A stretch of 12,009 nucleotides of DNA from a virus (lineage: Duplodnaviria > Heunggongvirae > Uroviricota > Caudoviricetes), in the IMG/VR virus record IMGVR_UViG_2537562173_000012, one strand, 5' to 3'. This document shows, in pieces, positions 2,839 to 10,949 of this stretch. Positions within the stretch are counted from its first letter, which is position 1. Every line of letters starts with the position of its first letter. The notes under the pieces were generated by a model. The model was not told the origin of the DNA, did no database searches, and saw nothing but the letters and a program-made list of their open reading frames with translations. The translations under genes were made by a program, and so were the position numbers.

Positions 2839-3135
2839 TCAGAATTGCATATCAATTTGCTCAGAATCCTCGGTGGCAGCCGGGGATTTTTTCTTTGTGA
2901 TTCCATCCAATGCATACTTAAAAGCCCTGCTAATCGGACTGATGTCTGATGCCATTCCGAAAGCACACAAGACCGAAGCAATAAATCTCCAGTCCGTTCT
3001 GCTTATCTTCGATTCATGACAGCCAATCATCTTTGCCAGACCGCGCTGGGTAAGCGTTGACAGGTTGATGAGTAAATCAGTTTCTGCGCGATCAATTTCT
3101 CGCTGTGTTGGCTTGCTGTAACTTGCTTGTGTCAT
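2839..3135 (-). CDS. cII: CII-like transcriptional activator
   Basis: 98-aa ORF with a helix-turn-helix region and a C-terminus KKSPAATEDSEQIDMQF that parallels lambda CII (RPAATERSEQIQMEF from memory). Sits immediately downstream of cro as in lambda, but the sequence is clearly diverged from lambda CII. Confidence 0.85.
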   Translation of the reverse strand: MTQASYSKPTQREIDRAETDLLINLSTLTQRGLAKMIGCHESKISRTDWRFIASVLCAFGMASDISPISRAFKYALDGITKKKSPAATEDSEQIDMQF

Positions 3136-4295: not shown

Positions 4296-4733
4296 ATGAT
4301 TAAAGAACGTATTTCTTATATCATTCCGATTGCGATGGATGAAGGCAACCCAGTAACTCCAGTTCTTATCTATGAAATGGATAAAGACTCCCATGAAGTG
4401 GATCTATCATTTGGCGCTTTTTTTATCGGCCTTAAGGCTACAAAAAAATATTCCATAGGCATTGAGGTTTTCAATGCTCAAGAAATACCGATACCAATTG
4501 ACACAAAACTGTACTCCAACCATAAGTTTTTTACGGTAGCAGAAGCCAACGATGGAGAAACCATCGTATCAACTTCTATGAGAATTAACTTCCCAAGGGT
4601 GAAAATTATCAAGCCTGGGATATTCGAAGTTAGAGCATCACTGGTTAATCCTGATAAAGGCGAAGTAATTGATGTAAAAAGTTCGTTTTTTGACGTGAAG
4701 ATAACAGGATCAGTTCGCGATGAGTTTAGATAA
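4296..4733 (+). CDS. Hypothetical protein, first gene of a cassette in the rexA/rexB position
   Basis: 145-aa ORF starting 8 nt after the cI stop on the same strand, with no obvious SD (possible coupling to cI). It does not resemble RexA, no catalytic motif was recognised, and the stretch looks more A+T-rich than its neighbours by eye. Confidence 0.6.
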   Translation: MIKERISYIIPIAMDEGNPVTPVLIYEMDKDSHEVDLSFGAFFIGLKATKKYSIGIEVFNAQEIPIPIDTKLYSNHKFFTVAEANDGETIVSTSMRINFPRVKIIKPGIFEVRASLVNPDKGEVIDVKSSFFDVKITGSVRDEFR

Positions 4734-4839
4734 CAAGGTTGCTCAGCTTCGTCCAAATCAAAACATATCTCGCCCAATTGGACACTATTCCACTGATGAT
4801 GCATACTCACGGCATGGTGGAGGAAACGGCGGAGGTAAC

Positions 4840-5091
4840 ATGCTTGAGGCTAGAGTTGCAAAGCTAGAGTCTGATGTTGAATACATCAAGCGCGATCTCG
4901 CTGAAGTAAAGTCAGATATAAAATCTGTAGATTCTCGTCTGTCAGGTATTGAGACAAGCATTAGCTCAGCAAAAATCACCATCAAGGCATCTGCGGTCGT
5001 TGTCAGTTTCGTGTTCGCATTTTGCGCCTACATTTTTGGAAGTTATGTTTCCAAAATCCTTGATGCCTTAAACGGACTCGTTCTTAAGTAA
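4840..5091 (+). CDS. Hypothetical small membrane protein (coiled-coil plus C-terminal TM helix), second gene of the cassette
   Basis: GGAGG SD at 4831-4835 before the ATG at 4840 gives an 83-aa product. The same frame is open from ATG 4720, giving the 123-aa form in the ORF track. Heptad-like LEARVAKLESDVEYIKRDLAEVKSDIKSV is followed by a hydrophobic stretch AVVVSFVFAFCAYIFGSYV. A terminator follows directly. Confidence 0.55.
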   Translation: MLEARVAKLESDVEYIKRDLAEVKSDIKSVDSRLSGIETSISSAKITIKASAVVVSFVFAFCAYIFGSYVSKILDALNGLVLK

Positions 5092-6724: not shown

Positions 6725-7693
6725 ATGAGTGAAGTAACAGATTTAGTTGTTATTGAAAAAGCAAATGCAATGACTGTATTTCAGTCTGCCGACCAGATTG
6801 AAGAAATCCTTCAAAAGGTTGAACGTGAAGTTATGTCCTTTGTTCCTGATATCACAACGGCAAGGGGCAGAAAGGAGATCGCTTCTCTGGCGTATAAAGT
6901 TGCGCAGACGAAAACATATCTCGATGGTCTTGGCAAAGACCTTGTTGCTGAACTGAAGGAAATTCCAAAGCTAATTGATGCTAACCGCAAGACAGTGCGT
7001 GATCGCCTTGATGAGCTGAAAGCCAAGGCGCGCCAGCCTCTTACTGATTATGAGGAGGAGCAGGCACGGATTAAAGCCGAAGAAGAAGCTAAGGCAGCAG
7101 CCGAAGCTCTCGCAAAGCAAATTGAGTCTGACCATGAAATAGCGATTTTGATGGATCGCGAATTTGACCGCCAAAGAGAAGAGGCAAGACTCAAAGCGGA
7201 GCAGGAAAAGCGAGAGCATGAAGAACGCTTAAAAAGAGAAGCTGAAGAGAAAGCCAGAGCAGAAGCCGAAGCAAAGGCAAAAGCCGAAATTGAAGCAGCA
7301 GCAAGGCGAGAAGCAGAAGCTAAGGCCGCAGCGGAACGTGCAGAGCGTGAACGCATTGAAGCCGAGCAACGAGCACAGCGCGAAGCAAAAGAGGCAGCAG
7401 AACGAGCTGAAAGAGAAAAGCAGGCAGCAATTGAAGCAGAACGCCGAAAAGCACAGGAGGAGGCAGAACGAATCCGGCGCGAGGCTGAAGCAAAAGAGCA
7501 AGCCAGAATAGCAGAAGAAAAAAGAATCAAGGACGAAGAAGAGCGTAGAGCAAAGGATAAAGCTCACCGGAAAGAAGTAAATAACAAAATACTTGCTGAC
7601 CTTATCAAGGTTGGTGCATCAGAAGATGTTGCTAAAAATATCATAACAGCCATCGTAAAAGGCGAAGTATTCGCAACAAAAATAACCTACTAA
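6725..7693 (+). CDS. Hypothetical protein with a long E/K/A/R-rich coiled-coil central domain (TolA domain II-like composition)
   Basis: GGAGG SD 5 nt before the ATG at 6725; 322 aa. Residues about 110-290 are almost entirely Glu, Lys, Ala and Arg in EAEAKAKAE-type repeats, flanked by ordinary N- and C-terminal domains. Confidence 0.75.
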   Translation: MSEVTDLVVIEKANAMTVFQSADQIEEILQKVEREVMSFVPDITTARGRKEIASLAYKVAQTKTYLDGLGKDLVAELKEIPKLIDANRKTVRDRLDELKAKARQPLTDYEEEQARIKAEEEAKAAAEALAKQIESDHEIAILMDREFDRQREEARLKAEQEKREHEERLKREAEEKARAEAEAKAKAEIEAAARREAEAKAAAERAERERIEAEQRAQREAKEAAERAEREKQAAIEAERRKAQEEAERIRREAEAKEQARIAEEKRIKDEEERRAKDKAHRKEVNNKILADLIKVGASEDVAKNIITAIVKGEVFATKITY

Positions 7694-8242: not shown

Positions 8243-8848
8243 ATGAGCAAAGAATTTTACGCAAGACTGGCAGCTATTCAGGAGAATCTGAACGCGCCAA
8301 AGAATCAGTACAACTCATTCGGCAAATATAAATACAGAAGCTGCGAAGATATTCTTGAAGGCGTTAAGCCGTTACTGAATGGTCTGTTTTTATCAATCAG
8401 CGATGAAGTTGTGTTGATTGGTGATCGGTATTACGTGAAAGCCACGGCAACTATTACCGATGGTGAAAACAGTCATACGGCAACCGCTCTTGCACGAGAG
8501 GAAGAAAGCAAGAAAGGAATGGATTCTGCACAAGTTACGGGAGCTACAAGCTCTTATGCACGCAAGTATTGCCTCAATGGTTTGTTCGGCATTGATGATG
8601 CGAAAGATGCAGATACCGACGAGCATAAACATCAGCAGAACGCAGCAGCAAAGCAATCAAAACCATCACCTACACCTGAACAGGTTCTAAAAGCATTCAC
8701 TGACGCAGCATTGCAGAAAAACACCGTAGAAGAGCTTAAACAGGCGTTCGCCAAAGCGTGGAAGATGCTCGAAGGCACACCGGAGCAGCACAAAGCGCAG
8801 GACGTTTACAACATCAGACGAGACGAATTAGAAGGAGCGGCTGCTTAA
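8243..8848 (+). CDS. erf: Erf-family single-strand annealing recombinase (P22 Erf-like)
   Basis: 201-aa ORF. N-terminus [45 protein letters not shown] matches my recollection of P22 Erf. The TTG-initiated extension in the ORF track was rejected. Confidence 0.85.
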
Positions 8849-9297
8849 TGGCACATTCGATTACTGTAAGACTAAACAAGCCCGCAAGAGAGTTTCAGTA
8901 CGGGGAAAATATCGGATTCAACATCCGTGCTGGCGTTCAGTATTACGATCGCCAGACAAAAAAGAAAGAATGGACAAACTACAGCGCCGTTGTATTTGCC
9001 AAGCCGGGAGCGCAAGCGGATTACTATCGTAGCGTTCTGGTTGAAGGAGGCATTGTAGAAATTACCGGAGAAAACATCAGGGTTGATGTTTATCAGGGGC
9101 AAAATGGTCAATCAATCACTCTTGAATTACTGAAGCTGGCGCTGCGTGAAGAGCTGAAAGATGAGCTGGAAATCGTAATGCGCGTCTATTTTGAAAAGCC
9201 GCGTACCACGGTGGGCTGGAAAGGGCTGATTAACGATCCGCATATGGATAACAGCTTCCAGATCAACGACGGTCTGCGTATCGGAGGTGCTGGATAA
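8848..9297 (+). CDS. Putative OB-fold ssDNA-binding (SSB-like) protein
   Basis: 149-aa ORF coupled to erf (TAATG overlap) with a GAAGGAG SD. The pattern [33 protein letters not shown]...QGQNGQ resembles the SSB OB-fold signature. It lies directly after the recombinase. Confidence 0.5.
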
Positions 9298-9322
9298 ATT
9301 CAGAAAAAACTACGATCGAATA

Positions 9323-9520
9323 ATGTCTCTACCGCAGGAAACGAAAGAGGAAAAGGAATTTCGCCACTGTATATGGCTTGCAGAGAAAGAAGAACGCGAG
9401 CGAATTTACCAGACATCAATCCGACCATTCCGCAAAGCCACATATACCCACTTCCCTGAATATATCGACCCGCGCCTGCGTAATTACCGCTCACGCTATG
9501 GCGCTATCAGTAATGACTGA
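9323..9520 (+). CDS. Hypothetical small protein
   Basis: Frame open from GTG 9287 (the track's start), but the SD there abuts the start codon. The first ATG is at 9323 and has no clear SD. Weak initiation signals either way. Confidence 0.35.
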   Translation: MSLPQETKEEKEFRHCIWLAEKEERERIYQTSIRPFRKATYTHFPEYIDPRLRNYRSRYGAISND

Positions 9521-9614
9521 GGAATTTACCATGAGAGGACTTGCTTAAGAGAAAGAGTTTCGGTTCTGTTAATGACAACAAATATCTGAATGCGATGTGG
9601 CGGAGTGGGAAGAA

Positions 9615-10076
9615 ATGAAACAAATGTCACTAATTGAGATGGATGGTTTTCTGAAAGGTAAATGCATCCCAAGTGATTTAAAGGTTAACGAAACAAACGC
9701 TGAATACCTTGTCCGTAAGTTCGGTGAACTTGAATCAAAACTGGAAACGGCGTTGCGGGAGTGTAGTTCTGCTGGAATCACGATTGATAACCTTGAGGCT
9801 AAATGCGCGAAGATGGCTGCTGAAAATACCTCACTTAAGCAATCTGAGAAGGAATTTAATGACTTTTGTCGTGAGGAGTTTAGCGAATGGGAAGATGATG
9901 TTACTGAAACCCCAGCCACCGACGCATTCCTGGCTGAAATTGAACGCAAAGCAATCCGAAAGTTCATTAACAGCATTGAACACATCCTGCGTGACAAGCT
10001 GTCTCCGTATGACACCGAAGAGATGCTTGAGGCTATGCGTATTTTTCTGGAAGAACAGGGAGGCGAGCAAAAATGA
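9615..10076 (+). CDS. Hypothetical acidic protein
   Basis: 153 aa from the ATG at 9615 with a GGAG SD; the track's GTG 9597 start is less likely. Coiled-coil-like and rich in Glu/Asp. Confidence 0.6.
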   Translation: MKQMSLIEMDGFLKGKCIPSDLKVNETNAEYLVRKFGELESKLETALRECSSAGITIDNLEAKCAKMAAENTSLKQSEKEFNDFCREEFSEWEDDVTETPATDAFLAEIERKAIRKFINSIEHILRDKLSPYDTEEMLEAMRIFLEEQGGEQK

Positions 10077-10390
10077 CGATCACAAAACAACGTGTAGAAG
10101 AAATCATATCCCGCATTGAAATGTATGGGCATGGTGCAGGGTATACCGCTGACGAGGTTTATGACCTAGCTGTACTGGCGCTGAATTTATCAAATATCGC
10201 AAACCTCAAGCGATACGAGCTTGATATGGATGGTTGTGACTCGTTCGGTCAGGATTGTGGCGCTGACATGACTGAAGATTCTGATGGCGATTATGTCCTG
10301 TTTGATGACGTGGTTAAGTTGTTTGAGTTTGATACAACCACTCAGAAGTTCGAAAGCCCAGCAAAGGAGGCAGCCAGTGAGCAAGATTGA
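10073..10390 (+). CDS. Hypothetical highly acidic small protein
   Basis: 105 aa; ATG overlaps the upstream stop (ATGA) with a GGGAGG SD. The C-terminal half is very Asp/Glu-rich (DMDGCDSFGQDCGADMTEDSDGDYVLFDD). Confidence 0.6.
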   Translation: MTITKQRVEEIISRIEMYGHGAGYTADEVYDLAVLALNLSNIANLKRYELDMDGCDSFGQDCGADMTEDSDGDYVLFDDVVKLFEFDTTTQKFESPAKEAASEQD

Positions 10391-10949
10391 CTATCAGGCA
10401 CTGCGTGAGGCGGCGGAACGTGCAATTCCAGCAATGGAACGCCTGTTAATGTTGCCAGTTGATGATGATTTGTTAAGTGAACAGGAACTTAAGGATTACG
10501 GTGTGGATATTGATGCGCTCAACGCCTTCAAATTTCTGACCGGACCAGAAACCGTGCTGGCGCTGCTGGATGAACGGGAAAGAAACCAGCAATACATCAA
10601 ACGCCGCGACCAGGAGAACGAGGAAATTGCGCTAACGGTAGGGAAGCTGCGCGTTGAGCTGGAAGCTGCAGAGAAGCGCATTGCAGAACTGGAAGCCGAA
10701 CCTGTAAGCCAAACTTACAAGTTGAACGAGCTGTCGGGCAACTATCCGGTAACTCCGGATGGTTGGATAAGCTGTAGTGAGCGAATGCCCGCTCAAGATG
10801 ATTGGATTTTAATTTATTCAAAGCACGGCGAGTATATGGCAGGACAGGTACAAGGGGAATACGTGGAGTTGAGCGACGGCACTTTATCGTGGTTAGGGAA
10901 CGCCTTGTACTGGATGCCTCTACCGGAACCGCCGCAGGAGGTTAATTGA
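10377..10949 (+). CDS. Hypothetical protein with a DUF551-like C-terminal domain
   Basis: GTG start at 10377 with an AAGGAGG SD 6 nt upstream; 190 aa. The track's ATG at 10284 lacks an SD and overlaps the previous gene. C-terminal W.PLPEPP-type ending (LYWMPLPEPPQEV) is typical of phage DUF551 proteins as I recall; a central coiled-coil is present. Confidence 0.55.
   Translation: MSKIDYQALREAAERAIPAMERLLMLPVDDDLLSEQELKDYGVDIDALNAFKFLTGPETVLALLDERERNQQYIKRRDQENEEIALTVGKLRVELEAAEKRIAELEAEPVSQTYKLNELSGNYPVTPDGWISCSERMPAQDDWILIYSKHGEYMAGQVQGEYVELSDGTLSWLGNALYWMPLPEPPQEVN

Follow-up and report, generated by a model that had tools for sequence, protein, structure and literature searches.

The question raised by this locus is what two small, strongly acidic proteins, encoded side by side in the early region of an Escherichia coli prophage, do for the phage that carries them. 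The genes lie in a viral sequence of 12,009 nucleotides (IMG/VR record IMGVR_UViG_2537562173_000012), which in its full length is called the window here, and they are referred to as open reading frame (ORF) A and ORF B. A preliminary description, made from the sequence alone, had presented them as an overlapping, Asp/Glu-rich pair downstream of erf and ssb, where P22 carries its abc and ea genes, and had suggested that they were DNA mimics or other anti-defense factors. Judged by their sequences, A and B are real, conserved, acidic early genes of the shuffled "Ea" accessory set in a P22/HK97-like prophage. We propose that they act as a pair of modular proteins, related to those of the Ea22 type, that bind protein and modulate the host, a reading to which we assign a probability of roughly 40%. 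As genes, both are already known: A (HkaH/gp37/EaE) and B (phrog_3126) are catalogued and are public at 95–100% identity. What appears to be new is the near-obligate linkage of the C-terminal module of A, designated A_C, to B, and the acidic Cys/Asp core of B as a portable module.

The acidic pair and its modules

The two genes and their parts are as follows (aa, amino acids; AF2, AlphaFold2; dN/dS, ratio of nonsynonymous to synonymous substitution rates; pLDDT, predicted local distance difference test score).

9615–10076, plus strand: ORF A, 153 aa, EaE / HkaH / HK97 gp37 family (phrog_614 match, HkaH identity, AF2 model, heptad pattern)
9615–9720, plus strand: N-terminal block of A (about aa 1–35), co-inherited with the DUF2737 3' end; the interval 9525–9720 is common to about 44 of 80 B-containing loci
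9721–9899, plus strand: coiled-coil segment and hypervariable central cassette of A; DNA common to only about 15 of the 80 loci
9900–10076, plus strand: A_C, comprising the TPATDAFLAE junction and the predicted C-terminal helical hairpin of A; B-linked module, common to about 48 of the 80 B-containing loci
10058–10063, plus strand: GGGAGG Shine–Dalgarno sequence for B, inside the 3' end of A and 9 nt upstream of the B ATG, read from the sequence
10073–10390, plus strand: ORF B, 105 aa, uncharacterized family phrog_3126 (full-length profile match, dN/dS)
10073–10198, plus strand: N-terminal helical hairpin module of B (aa 1–42; AF2 helices 5–17 and 26–42)
10199–10324, plus strand: core module of B (aa 43–84), KRYELDMDGCDSFGQDCGADMTEDSDGDYVLFDDVV, net charge −9, modeled as a small beta unit and then a helix
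10325–10390, plus strand: acidic tail of B (aa 85–105), predicted disordered, with pLDDT below 50 for aa 90–105

Both proteins are rich in Asp and Glu, and most of the acidity of B lies in its C-terminal half, as had been described. The isoelectric point (pI) of A is 4.62, with 22% Asp plus Glu and a net charge of −13. The corresponding values for B are 4.05, 23%, and −16, and its pI is the lowest among the 22 likely genes of the window. When charges were counted on the sequence, residues 1–52 of B contributed −3 and residues 53–105 contributed −13. This acidity is not due to chance, and it is conserved across the family: the core had a net charge of −7.8 ± 2.7 over a set of 71 relatives obtained by clustering at 50% identity, and a net negative charge was found for 99% of proteins with a B module.

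The overlap of the two genes was also borne out. The stop codon of A (TGA, 10074–10076) overlaps the start codon of B (ATG, 10073–10075) to give ATGA, and this arrangement, together with the internal Shine–Dalgarno sequence, is conserved among related loci. The next gene downstream extends the series:

10377–10949, plus strand: ORF C, 190 aa, Ead/Ea22-like N-terminus and coiled coil followed by DUF551 (PF13935, E = 1e-30, 107 bits; PF04448, E = 6e-11)

ORF C begins with GTG, has an AAGGAGG Shine–Dalgarno sequence at 10364–10370, and overlaps B by 14 nt, an overlap found again in most related loci. Because ORF C is as acidic as the pair (pI 4.34, net charge −19), the unit consists of three consecutive acidic genes rather than two; two other small early ORFs are acidic as well. 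A and B belong to a chain of overlapping ORFs on the same strand, with N, erf, and abc2 upstream. Intact relatives have abc2, DUF2737, A, B, and then an Ead/Ea22-like gene, and the overlaps are of the ATGA type or of 14 nt. The equivalence to the P22 abc/ea region therefore held: erf (PF04404) and abc2 (PF11043) lie upstream of the pair and the Ead_Ea22 plus DUF551 gene lies downstream.

The start of ORF A at the ATG at 9615 agrees with its homologues and with RefSeq annotation. Residues 1–149 matched positions 27–179 of the 214-position phrog_614 profile (E = 8.4e-60), 7501 relatives were found in a large protein collection, and the protein is 100% identical to a hypothetical protein of E. 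coli cloneA_i1. ORF A is the counterpart of HK620 hkaH, which is annotated as "similar to HK97 gp37" and often as "eae protein"; the two are 83% identical over aa 1–127, and the likeness stops just past TPATDAFLAE. The traits of the family are all present in A, namely the conserved N-terminus, the coiled coil, the TPATDAFLAE junction, and the slot between DUF2737/abc2 and an Ead/Ea22-like gene, a placement compared with HK620 and E. coli strain 81. Homologues have the first 70 or so and the last 55 or so residues in common, with unrelated inserts of 0 to about 90 aa between them; the central cassette of the present copy is a short acidic version, ...KQSEKEFNDFCREEFSEWEDDVTE.

The AF2 model of A was all-helical, with helices at 6–13, 26–52, 57–88, 100–128, and 131–149 (pLDDT 74.7; predicted template modeling score, pTM, 0.31). 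Within aa 26–90, 83% of the heptad a and d positions are hydrophobic, and in Pfam the protein had only weak coiled-coil matches (ZapB, cortexillin). On this model, A is predicted to be a coiled-coil stalk bearing a variable cassette and ending in the helical hairpin of A_C. All three parts are under purifying selection, with dN/dS values of 0.077, 0.082, and 0.151 for the N-terminal, middle, and C-terminal blocks, respectively. A minus-strand ORF of 187 aa (9569–10132) lies antisense to ORF A. It is most likely a shadow ORF, because homology, selection, and annotation all back the plus-strand frame.

ORF B matched phrog_3126 over its entire length (residues 1–105 on profile positions 1–105 of 105; E = 8.2e-68). 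The family is small, with 269 relatives in 5.8 billion proteins and 106 clusters at 50% identity. Its members are confined to phages of Escherichia, Salmonella, Shigella, and Klebsiella, apart from distant copies of the core in Aeromonas. The median dN/dS was 0.137 (861 pairs). The 300 bp of B used for searching (10077–10376) are 100% identical in E. coli APEC O1, and B of this E. coli prophage is 81% identical to that of Salmonella phage LPST10 (Skatevirus). With one genome per species, the taxonomic survey gave only two Aeromonas hits and a 1-kb Novosphingobium contig. A wide taxonomic spread of B was rejected, because the hits are few and the contig is probably contamination; this contig (Novosphingobium silvae NODE_63, 1000 bp, coverage 0.9), which carries an 81%-identical B homologue, most likely represents contamination by an enterobacterial phage.

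The AF2 model of B (pLDDT 70.7) has a helical hairpin (5–17/26–42), a small beta unit (47–51/65–68), a helix (77–83), and a disordered end (90–105). In the core, residues R47, L50, C55, D56, S57, Q60, D61, C62, G63, A64, M66, E68, G72, and V80 are near-invariant. A third Cys (C-x2-C-x3-C) is present in 43 of 71 relatives and is replaced by Phe in this copy and in 18 others, with C55 and C62 near-invariant. These residues were compared with a zinc-knuckle or other Cys-rich metal-binding mini-domain, in which a CxxCG knuckle and three or four conserved metal ligands at the least would be expected. The tail is variable or extended among homologues.

All three modules of B were also found separately in other proteins. 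The hairpin alone forms the N-terminus of other, longer phage proteins, with matches limited to aa 3–39 in proteins of 140–285 aa and, in addition, in phages SJ46 and vB_EcoM-813R1. Among 73 representatives, the fusion partners of B modules were DUF551 (eight), Ead_Ea22 (five), DUF3850/ASCH (two), and dATP/dGTP pyrophosphohydrolase (one). In protein P0298, an Ead_Ea22 N-terminus and coiled coil are followed by the B core as the C-terminal domain.

A 15-nt direct repeat (14 of 15 nt identical) occurs at 9634–9648, where it encodes EMDG in A, and at 10221–10235, where it encodes DMDG in B. The idea that the A N-terminus (..IEMDGF..) is a degenerate copy of the B core (..LDMDGC..) was rejected (hhalign probability 0.6%), and the repeat is probably due to chance.

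Linkage of A_C to B in shuffled loci

A search with A_C identified 65 IMG/VR viral contigs. B was present in 63 of them, immediately downstream in 62. At the two remaining loci a different, unrelated gene takes its place and ends in the B tail peptide. The A_C–B pair is kept while the N-terminal parts of the upstream gene vary, and in a coverage profile of 80 B-containing viral contigs the block boundaries fall inside A. Two short peptides, TPATDAFLAE(I/V) (9900–9935) and DTT.Q(Q/K)FES (10325–10350), recur as junctions of unrelated head, stalk, and tail modules in Ea-region proteins (for example, proteins P0007 and P0016, and loci L139 and L147). They look like preferred recombination points inside coding sequence.

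The cassette containing B is found in more than one place. It occupied the early-left "ea" position in 45 of the 80 loci and the early-right "nin" position, after the replication genes, in at least 21. In E. coli O157:H7 and APEC O1, a cassette of B plus Ead/Ea22 lies in the nin region after O and P, at about position 3000 of the locus; the same cassette therefore moves between both early operons. The A_C–B pair itself was seen in the ea region, in nin regions of the APEC type, and in phage Sa179lw, a non-lambdoid siphovirus. In LPST10 and Vi II-E1 (Macdonaldcampvirus), which we take to be phages isolated as lytic, B is preceded, with a 4-nt overlap, by an "eae"-type coiled-coil gene with a different tail. 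Both families are present in functional phages, including IME10, Sf101, the PhiR12 series, and LPST10.

We picture A and B as non-essential early accessory proteins belonging to a set in which globular modules, coiled-coil stalks, and tail modules are constantly reshuffled. The N-antiterminated early-left transcript would yield both proteins a few minutes after infection or induction; the same-strand chain of overlapping ORFs and the lack of any terminator-like site found between 9200 and 11300 speak for such early co-expression. A is probably oligomeric, by analogy with lambda Ea22, and would assemble through its coiled coil. The A_C hairpin may act as the docking partner of B, bringing the two proteins into physical contact, and the complex may bind a conserved host protein early, titrating or inhibiting it. 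The task of the pair would then be akin to that of lambda Ea22 and the exo–xis genes, tuning host physiology and the lysis/lysogeny outcome; A and B would be neither enzymes nor generic DNA look-alikes.

Several observations weigh against this proposal. Of 5426 complete E. coli genomes, 533 carry B and 121 carry A_C, and B often occurs without A_C. In O157-type prophages a DUF4752 gene, instead of A, stands upstream of B. The A_C–B linkage may reflect no more than joint inheritance of a young DNA block; since the copies of A_C are 88–100% identical at the protein level, there has been little independent evolution with which to test it. No homology between A and B was detected by hhalign, and A had no match to the Ead_Ea22 model (PF13935) at E ≤ 0.1; neither did B. 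The AF2 models of A and B are of moderate confidence (pLDDT 75 and 71, pTM 0.31 and 0.43, respectively), and a literature search found no functional data on either family. Because phages isolated as lytic also carry B, a lysogeny-specific role is disfavored. That occurrence and the near-invariance of the B core together favor a conserved target of any infection over such a role. The near-invariant core, the 81% identity to LPST10 B, and the dN/dS of 0.14 support a conserved target as opposed to an arms race.

The co-inheritance argument can be carried further: A and B might be two unrelated accessory genes with separate functions, adjacent only through inheritance in a mosaic block, with recombination occurring at TPATDAFLAE and DTT.Q.FES and not between A_C and B. 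The block boundaries do fall exactly at these junctions, and in many loci B is directly preceded by other genes (DUF4752, short ORFs, or genes with other tail types). The roughly fourfold excess of B over A_C among the complete E. coli genomes is as expected for separate genes, and the near-identity of the A_C copies fits a recent single origin. We nevertheless consider this account doubtful. A_C was found without B in only two of 65 cases, despite freely varying upstream partners and three genomic contexts; the ATGA overlap and internal Shine–Dalgarno sequence are conserved; and fusions of B modules to stalk and tail modules from this gene set recur.

Candidate functions and known systems

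Neither protein matched Ocr, ArdA, Gam, Abc2, or any other anti-defense or defense family in Pfam, NCBIfam, or PADLOC; PADLOC gave one marginal 14-bit coiled-coil-type match for A and none for B. In PHROGs the matches were to phrog_614 and phrog_3126, both of no known function, and none was to an anti-restriction family. A sequence search of the PDB returned nothing for B and only noise at E > 0.3 for A. Structure prediction had been put forward in the preliminary description as a check on its proposal; the AF2 folds of A and B had no match in the PDB or BFVD, and in particular none to a solved DNA-mimic fold. A and B were also absent from the accessory genes of two screens by Silas et al., whose supplements were compared. 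Homology of A or B to any characterized protein was rejected, the matches being limited to unknown-function PHROGs and weak coiled-coil noise; homology to characterized proteins of unrelated function was among the things not found for either.

These searches bear on the view that B, with or without A, is a DNA mimic or protein inhibitor of a host defense (restriction-modification, BREX, or a RecBCD-like nuclease) that extends the role of abc2. The pair lies directly downstream of abc2, and the cassette always belongs to an early accessory region, on one or the other side of the immunity region; phages isolated as lytic carry it too. Such a placement suits a function required when any infection begins. 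The strong negative charge is conserved (B pI 4.05; about −8 in the core across the family), and the hypervariable central cassette of A is arms-race-like. Defense-related genes have come from abc2-containing accessory regions before; one case is P22 abc1, which sets off an abortive infection system encoded by P4 (Silas et al., bioRxiv 10.1101/2023.04.06.535777). Set against this are the lack of any sequence match to Ocr, ArdA, Gam, Abc2, or PADLOC families, of any PDB or fold match, and of either gene in the Silas et al. screens. Where B is acidic, its sequence is a near-invariant Cys/Gly/Asp motif and not a tolerant array of surface carboxylates, and B is highly conserved, unlike most arms-race inhibitors. 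The neighboring Ea22-type proteins are equally acidic, and their sole reported phenotype is developmental. We regard an anti-defense role as unlikely. The placement given in the preliminary description stood, whereas its DNA-mimic or anti-defense guess gained no positive support beyond charge and neighborhood from the Pfam, NCBIfam, PADLOC, PDB, and BFVD searches or from the Silas et al. screens.

The known DNA mimics T7 Ocr, ArdA, T4 Arn, and lambda Gam are small, early, and strongly acidic; B shares their high, conserved negative charge, and its pI of 4.05 falls within their range. B differs from them in having no sequence or fold likeness and in its lower charge density (−0.15 per residue, against about −0.25 for Ocr). 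Its acidic segment is a conserved Cys- and Gly-containing loop in place of carboxylate-decorated helices. Because of the near-invariant Cys/Gly/Asp motif in its acidic stretch, B looks like a specific small fold rather than a case of generic charge mimicry.

Our proposal of a host-modulating, Ea22-related pair draws on the resemblance of A and B to lambda Ea22 (PF13935). The pair and Ea22 occupy the same early, non-essential region from the recombination genes to xis, share a design of head, coiled-coil stalk, and variable acidic C-terminal part, and evolve as mosaics. The B core can fill the place of the C-terminal domain in an Ead_Ea22 protein (P0298), and an Ead_Ea22 plus DUF551 gene directly follows B. 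PF13935 is carried by some A homologues with other central cassettes and by some B-core fusion proteins. The differences are that A and B themselves fall below the PF13935 threshold and that B also occurs in phages isolated as lytic. A and B qualify neither as known DNA mimics nor, by the Pfam model, as Ead/Ea22 proteins, although they share design and modules with the latter. Ea22 is tetrameric and mosaic, with variable acidic C-terminal domains (PMC10834534). Ea22 and its exo–xis neighbors shift the lysis/lysogeny balance and host survival, the pro-lysogenic phenotype having been shown only for lambda and Stx-phage Ea22 (PMC7093339).

Three other systems were compared. A is a member of the family of HK620 HkaH, HK97 gp37, and "EaE" (phrog_614) and occupies the same slot after abc2/DUF2737 and before an Ead/Ea22-like gene. 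HkaH differs in having another C-terminal module past TPATDAFLAE, and HK620 has no gene B, whereas the A_C of A comes with B. P22 Abc2 (PF11043) is the product of the immediate upstream neighbor in the same operon; it is unrelated in sequence and, in this copy, basic (pI 9.4). DUF551, found for example in YfdS of cryptic prophage CPS-53, is fused to B modules more often than any other domain and is present in ORF C. A and B lack it, and the YfdQRST effect is not linked to an A- or B-like module. In excess, the CPS-53 yfdQRST cluster (yfdS encoding the DUF551 protein) inhibits replication initiation through the binding of DnaA by YfdR (PMC4776307). By analogy, YfdQRST offers a precedent for the targeting of host proteins by this class of prophage genes. 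Precedents from the equivalent regions of lambda and cryptic prophages are thus directed at the host; another is Orf73, described as a TraR-like RNA polymerase effector (PMC9239242).

A bolder extension of these ideas, which we think improbable, is that the Ea genes are a modular system for the display of effectors: phages would shuffle small heads, the B core among them, onto oligomeric coiled-coil stalks, either by fusion or by docking modules such as A_C. The B core would then be a new, possibly metal-stabilized inhibitor of a conserved host DNA-handling or defense protein, and A–B would be a two-part anti-defense or host-takeover device of temperate and lytic enterobacterial phages.

Prophage setting and significance

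The window comprises the immunity and early region of a P22/HK97/CUS-3-like E. coli prophage. Its genes, and the two features immediately upstream of the pair, are as follows.

Minus strand: DnaB-type helicase, O-like initiator, cII, cro
Plus strand, in order: cI, N-like antiterminator, kil, erf, ssb-like, abc2, ORF A, ORF B, Ead/Ea22 plus DUF551 gene (ORF C), small ORFs, excisionase-like gene
9287–9520, plus strand: abc2 (anti-RecBCD protein 2), N-terminally truncated (PF11043, E = 8e-45, profile positions 23–97 of 97; phrog_656, "abc2 anti-RecBCD")
9531–9618, plus strand: remnant of a DUF2737 gene of the HK620 hkaI type (alignment with the E. coli strain 81 prophage; annotation of relatives)

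The nearest phages are HK544, CUS-3, and HK97, each covering at most 58% of the window, as is typical of mosaic lambdoid phages. The exact sequence of the window is public on contig AEYT01000032.1 of E. coli cloneA_i1, where the prophage adjoins dsdC/dsdX, and part of a 951-bp stretch of this region is present in 2014 of the 5426 complete E. coli genomes. An Rfam scan of the whole window found no known RNA, and neither a terminator-like site nor a convincing promoter was detected between 9200 and 11300; a hidden known RNA or regulatory element in the region was rejected on these empty scans.

The DNA upstream of the pair is damaged. A 142-bp fragment of host aroG (DAHP synthase, about aa 77–126) at 9135–9276, inside ORF 8848–9297, stands in place of 173 bp of prophage DNA that would have comprised the 3' end of the ssb-like gene, a spacer, and the first 53 or so nt of abc2. 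As a result, the ssb-like sequence runs into AroG in a chimeric ORF, and abc2, the immediate upstream neighbor of the pair and the sole gene of known function beside it, is truncated at its N-terminus. Only a single public contig (AEYT01000032.1, E. coli cloneA_i1) was found to carry the exact chimera, which was covered by none of the 5426 complete E. coli genomes. The possibility that the aroG insert made the window artificial was rejected, since the exact chimeric ORF is present on that contig.

The DUF2737 remnant has a 77-bp internal deletion at 9540/9541, flanked by the short direct repeats GGACTTGC / GGAATTGC. The deletion shifts the frame, so that the product reads MRGLA and then stops at 9546–9548. 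In intact relatives the DUF2737 stop codon overlaps the ORF A start as ATGA; as a consequence of the deletion, ORF A in this copy lacks its usual upstream translational coupling and relies on its own weak Shine–Dalgarno-like sequence (GGAG/GGGAAG).

Damage of this kind, with the aroG fragment in ssb-like/abc2 and the loss of coupling to A through the DUF2737 deletion, is what might be seen if A and B were decaying or functionless ORFs of a degraded prophage. ORFs A, B, and C are nevertheless intact in this copy, A being 100% identical to a database protein and 300 bp of B being 100% identical in APEC O1. All modules are under purifying selection across many phages, and the families occur in functional phages. 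Decay is very unlikely because of the selection data.

Additional ORFs were noted elsewhere in the window. ORF 6725–7693 (322 aa) is rich in Glu, Ala, Lys, and Arg, has long AEAKAKAE-type runs, and matches phrog_1376, whose function is not known; it may encode a long single-helix or coiled-coil protein of the early-left operon. The overlapping ORFs 4296–4733 (phrog_5893) and 4720–5091 (phrog_6136), also of functions not known, are directly 3' of cI, a position held in lambdoid phages by exclusion genes of the rex or sieB type; ORF 4720–5091 has a hydrophobic C-terminal segment and a weak XhlA-like match. TolA is one feature name under the mEp213 match of the window.

In the classic temperate coliphages, few parts are still as poorly understood as the region from the recombination genes to xis, which a large share of E. 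coli genomes carry. Apart from what is proposed here, A and B are ordinary hypothetical genes that had already been catalogued. They are of value mainly because they define a candidate for anti-defense or host-takeover screens, namely a conserved acidic core of 42 residues together with its linked partner module. If the A_C–B partnership and a host target prove true, they would provide a handle on the workings of the shuffled Ea22/EaE/DUF551 set and a reason for its consistent acidity.

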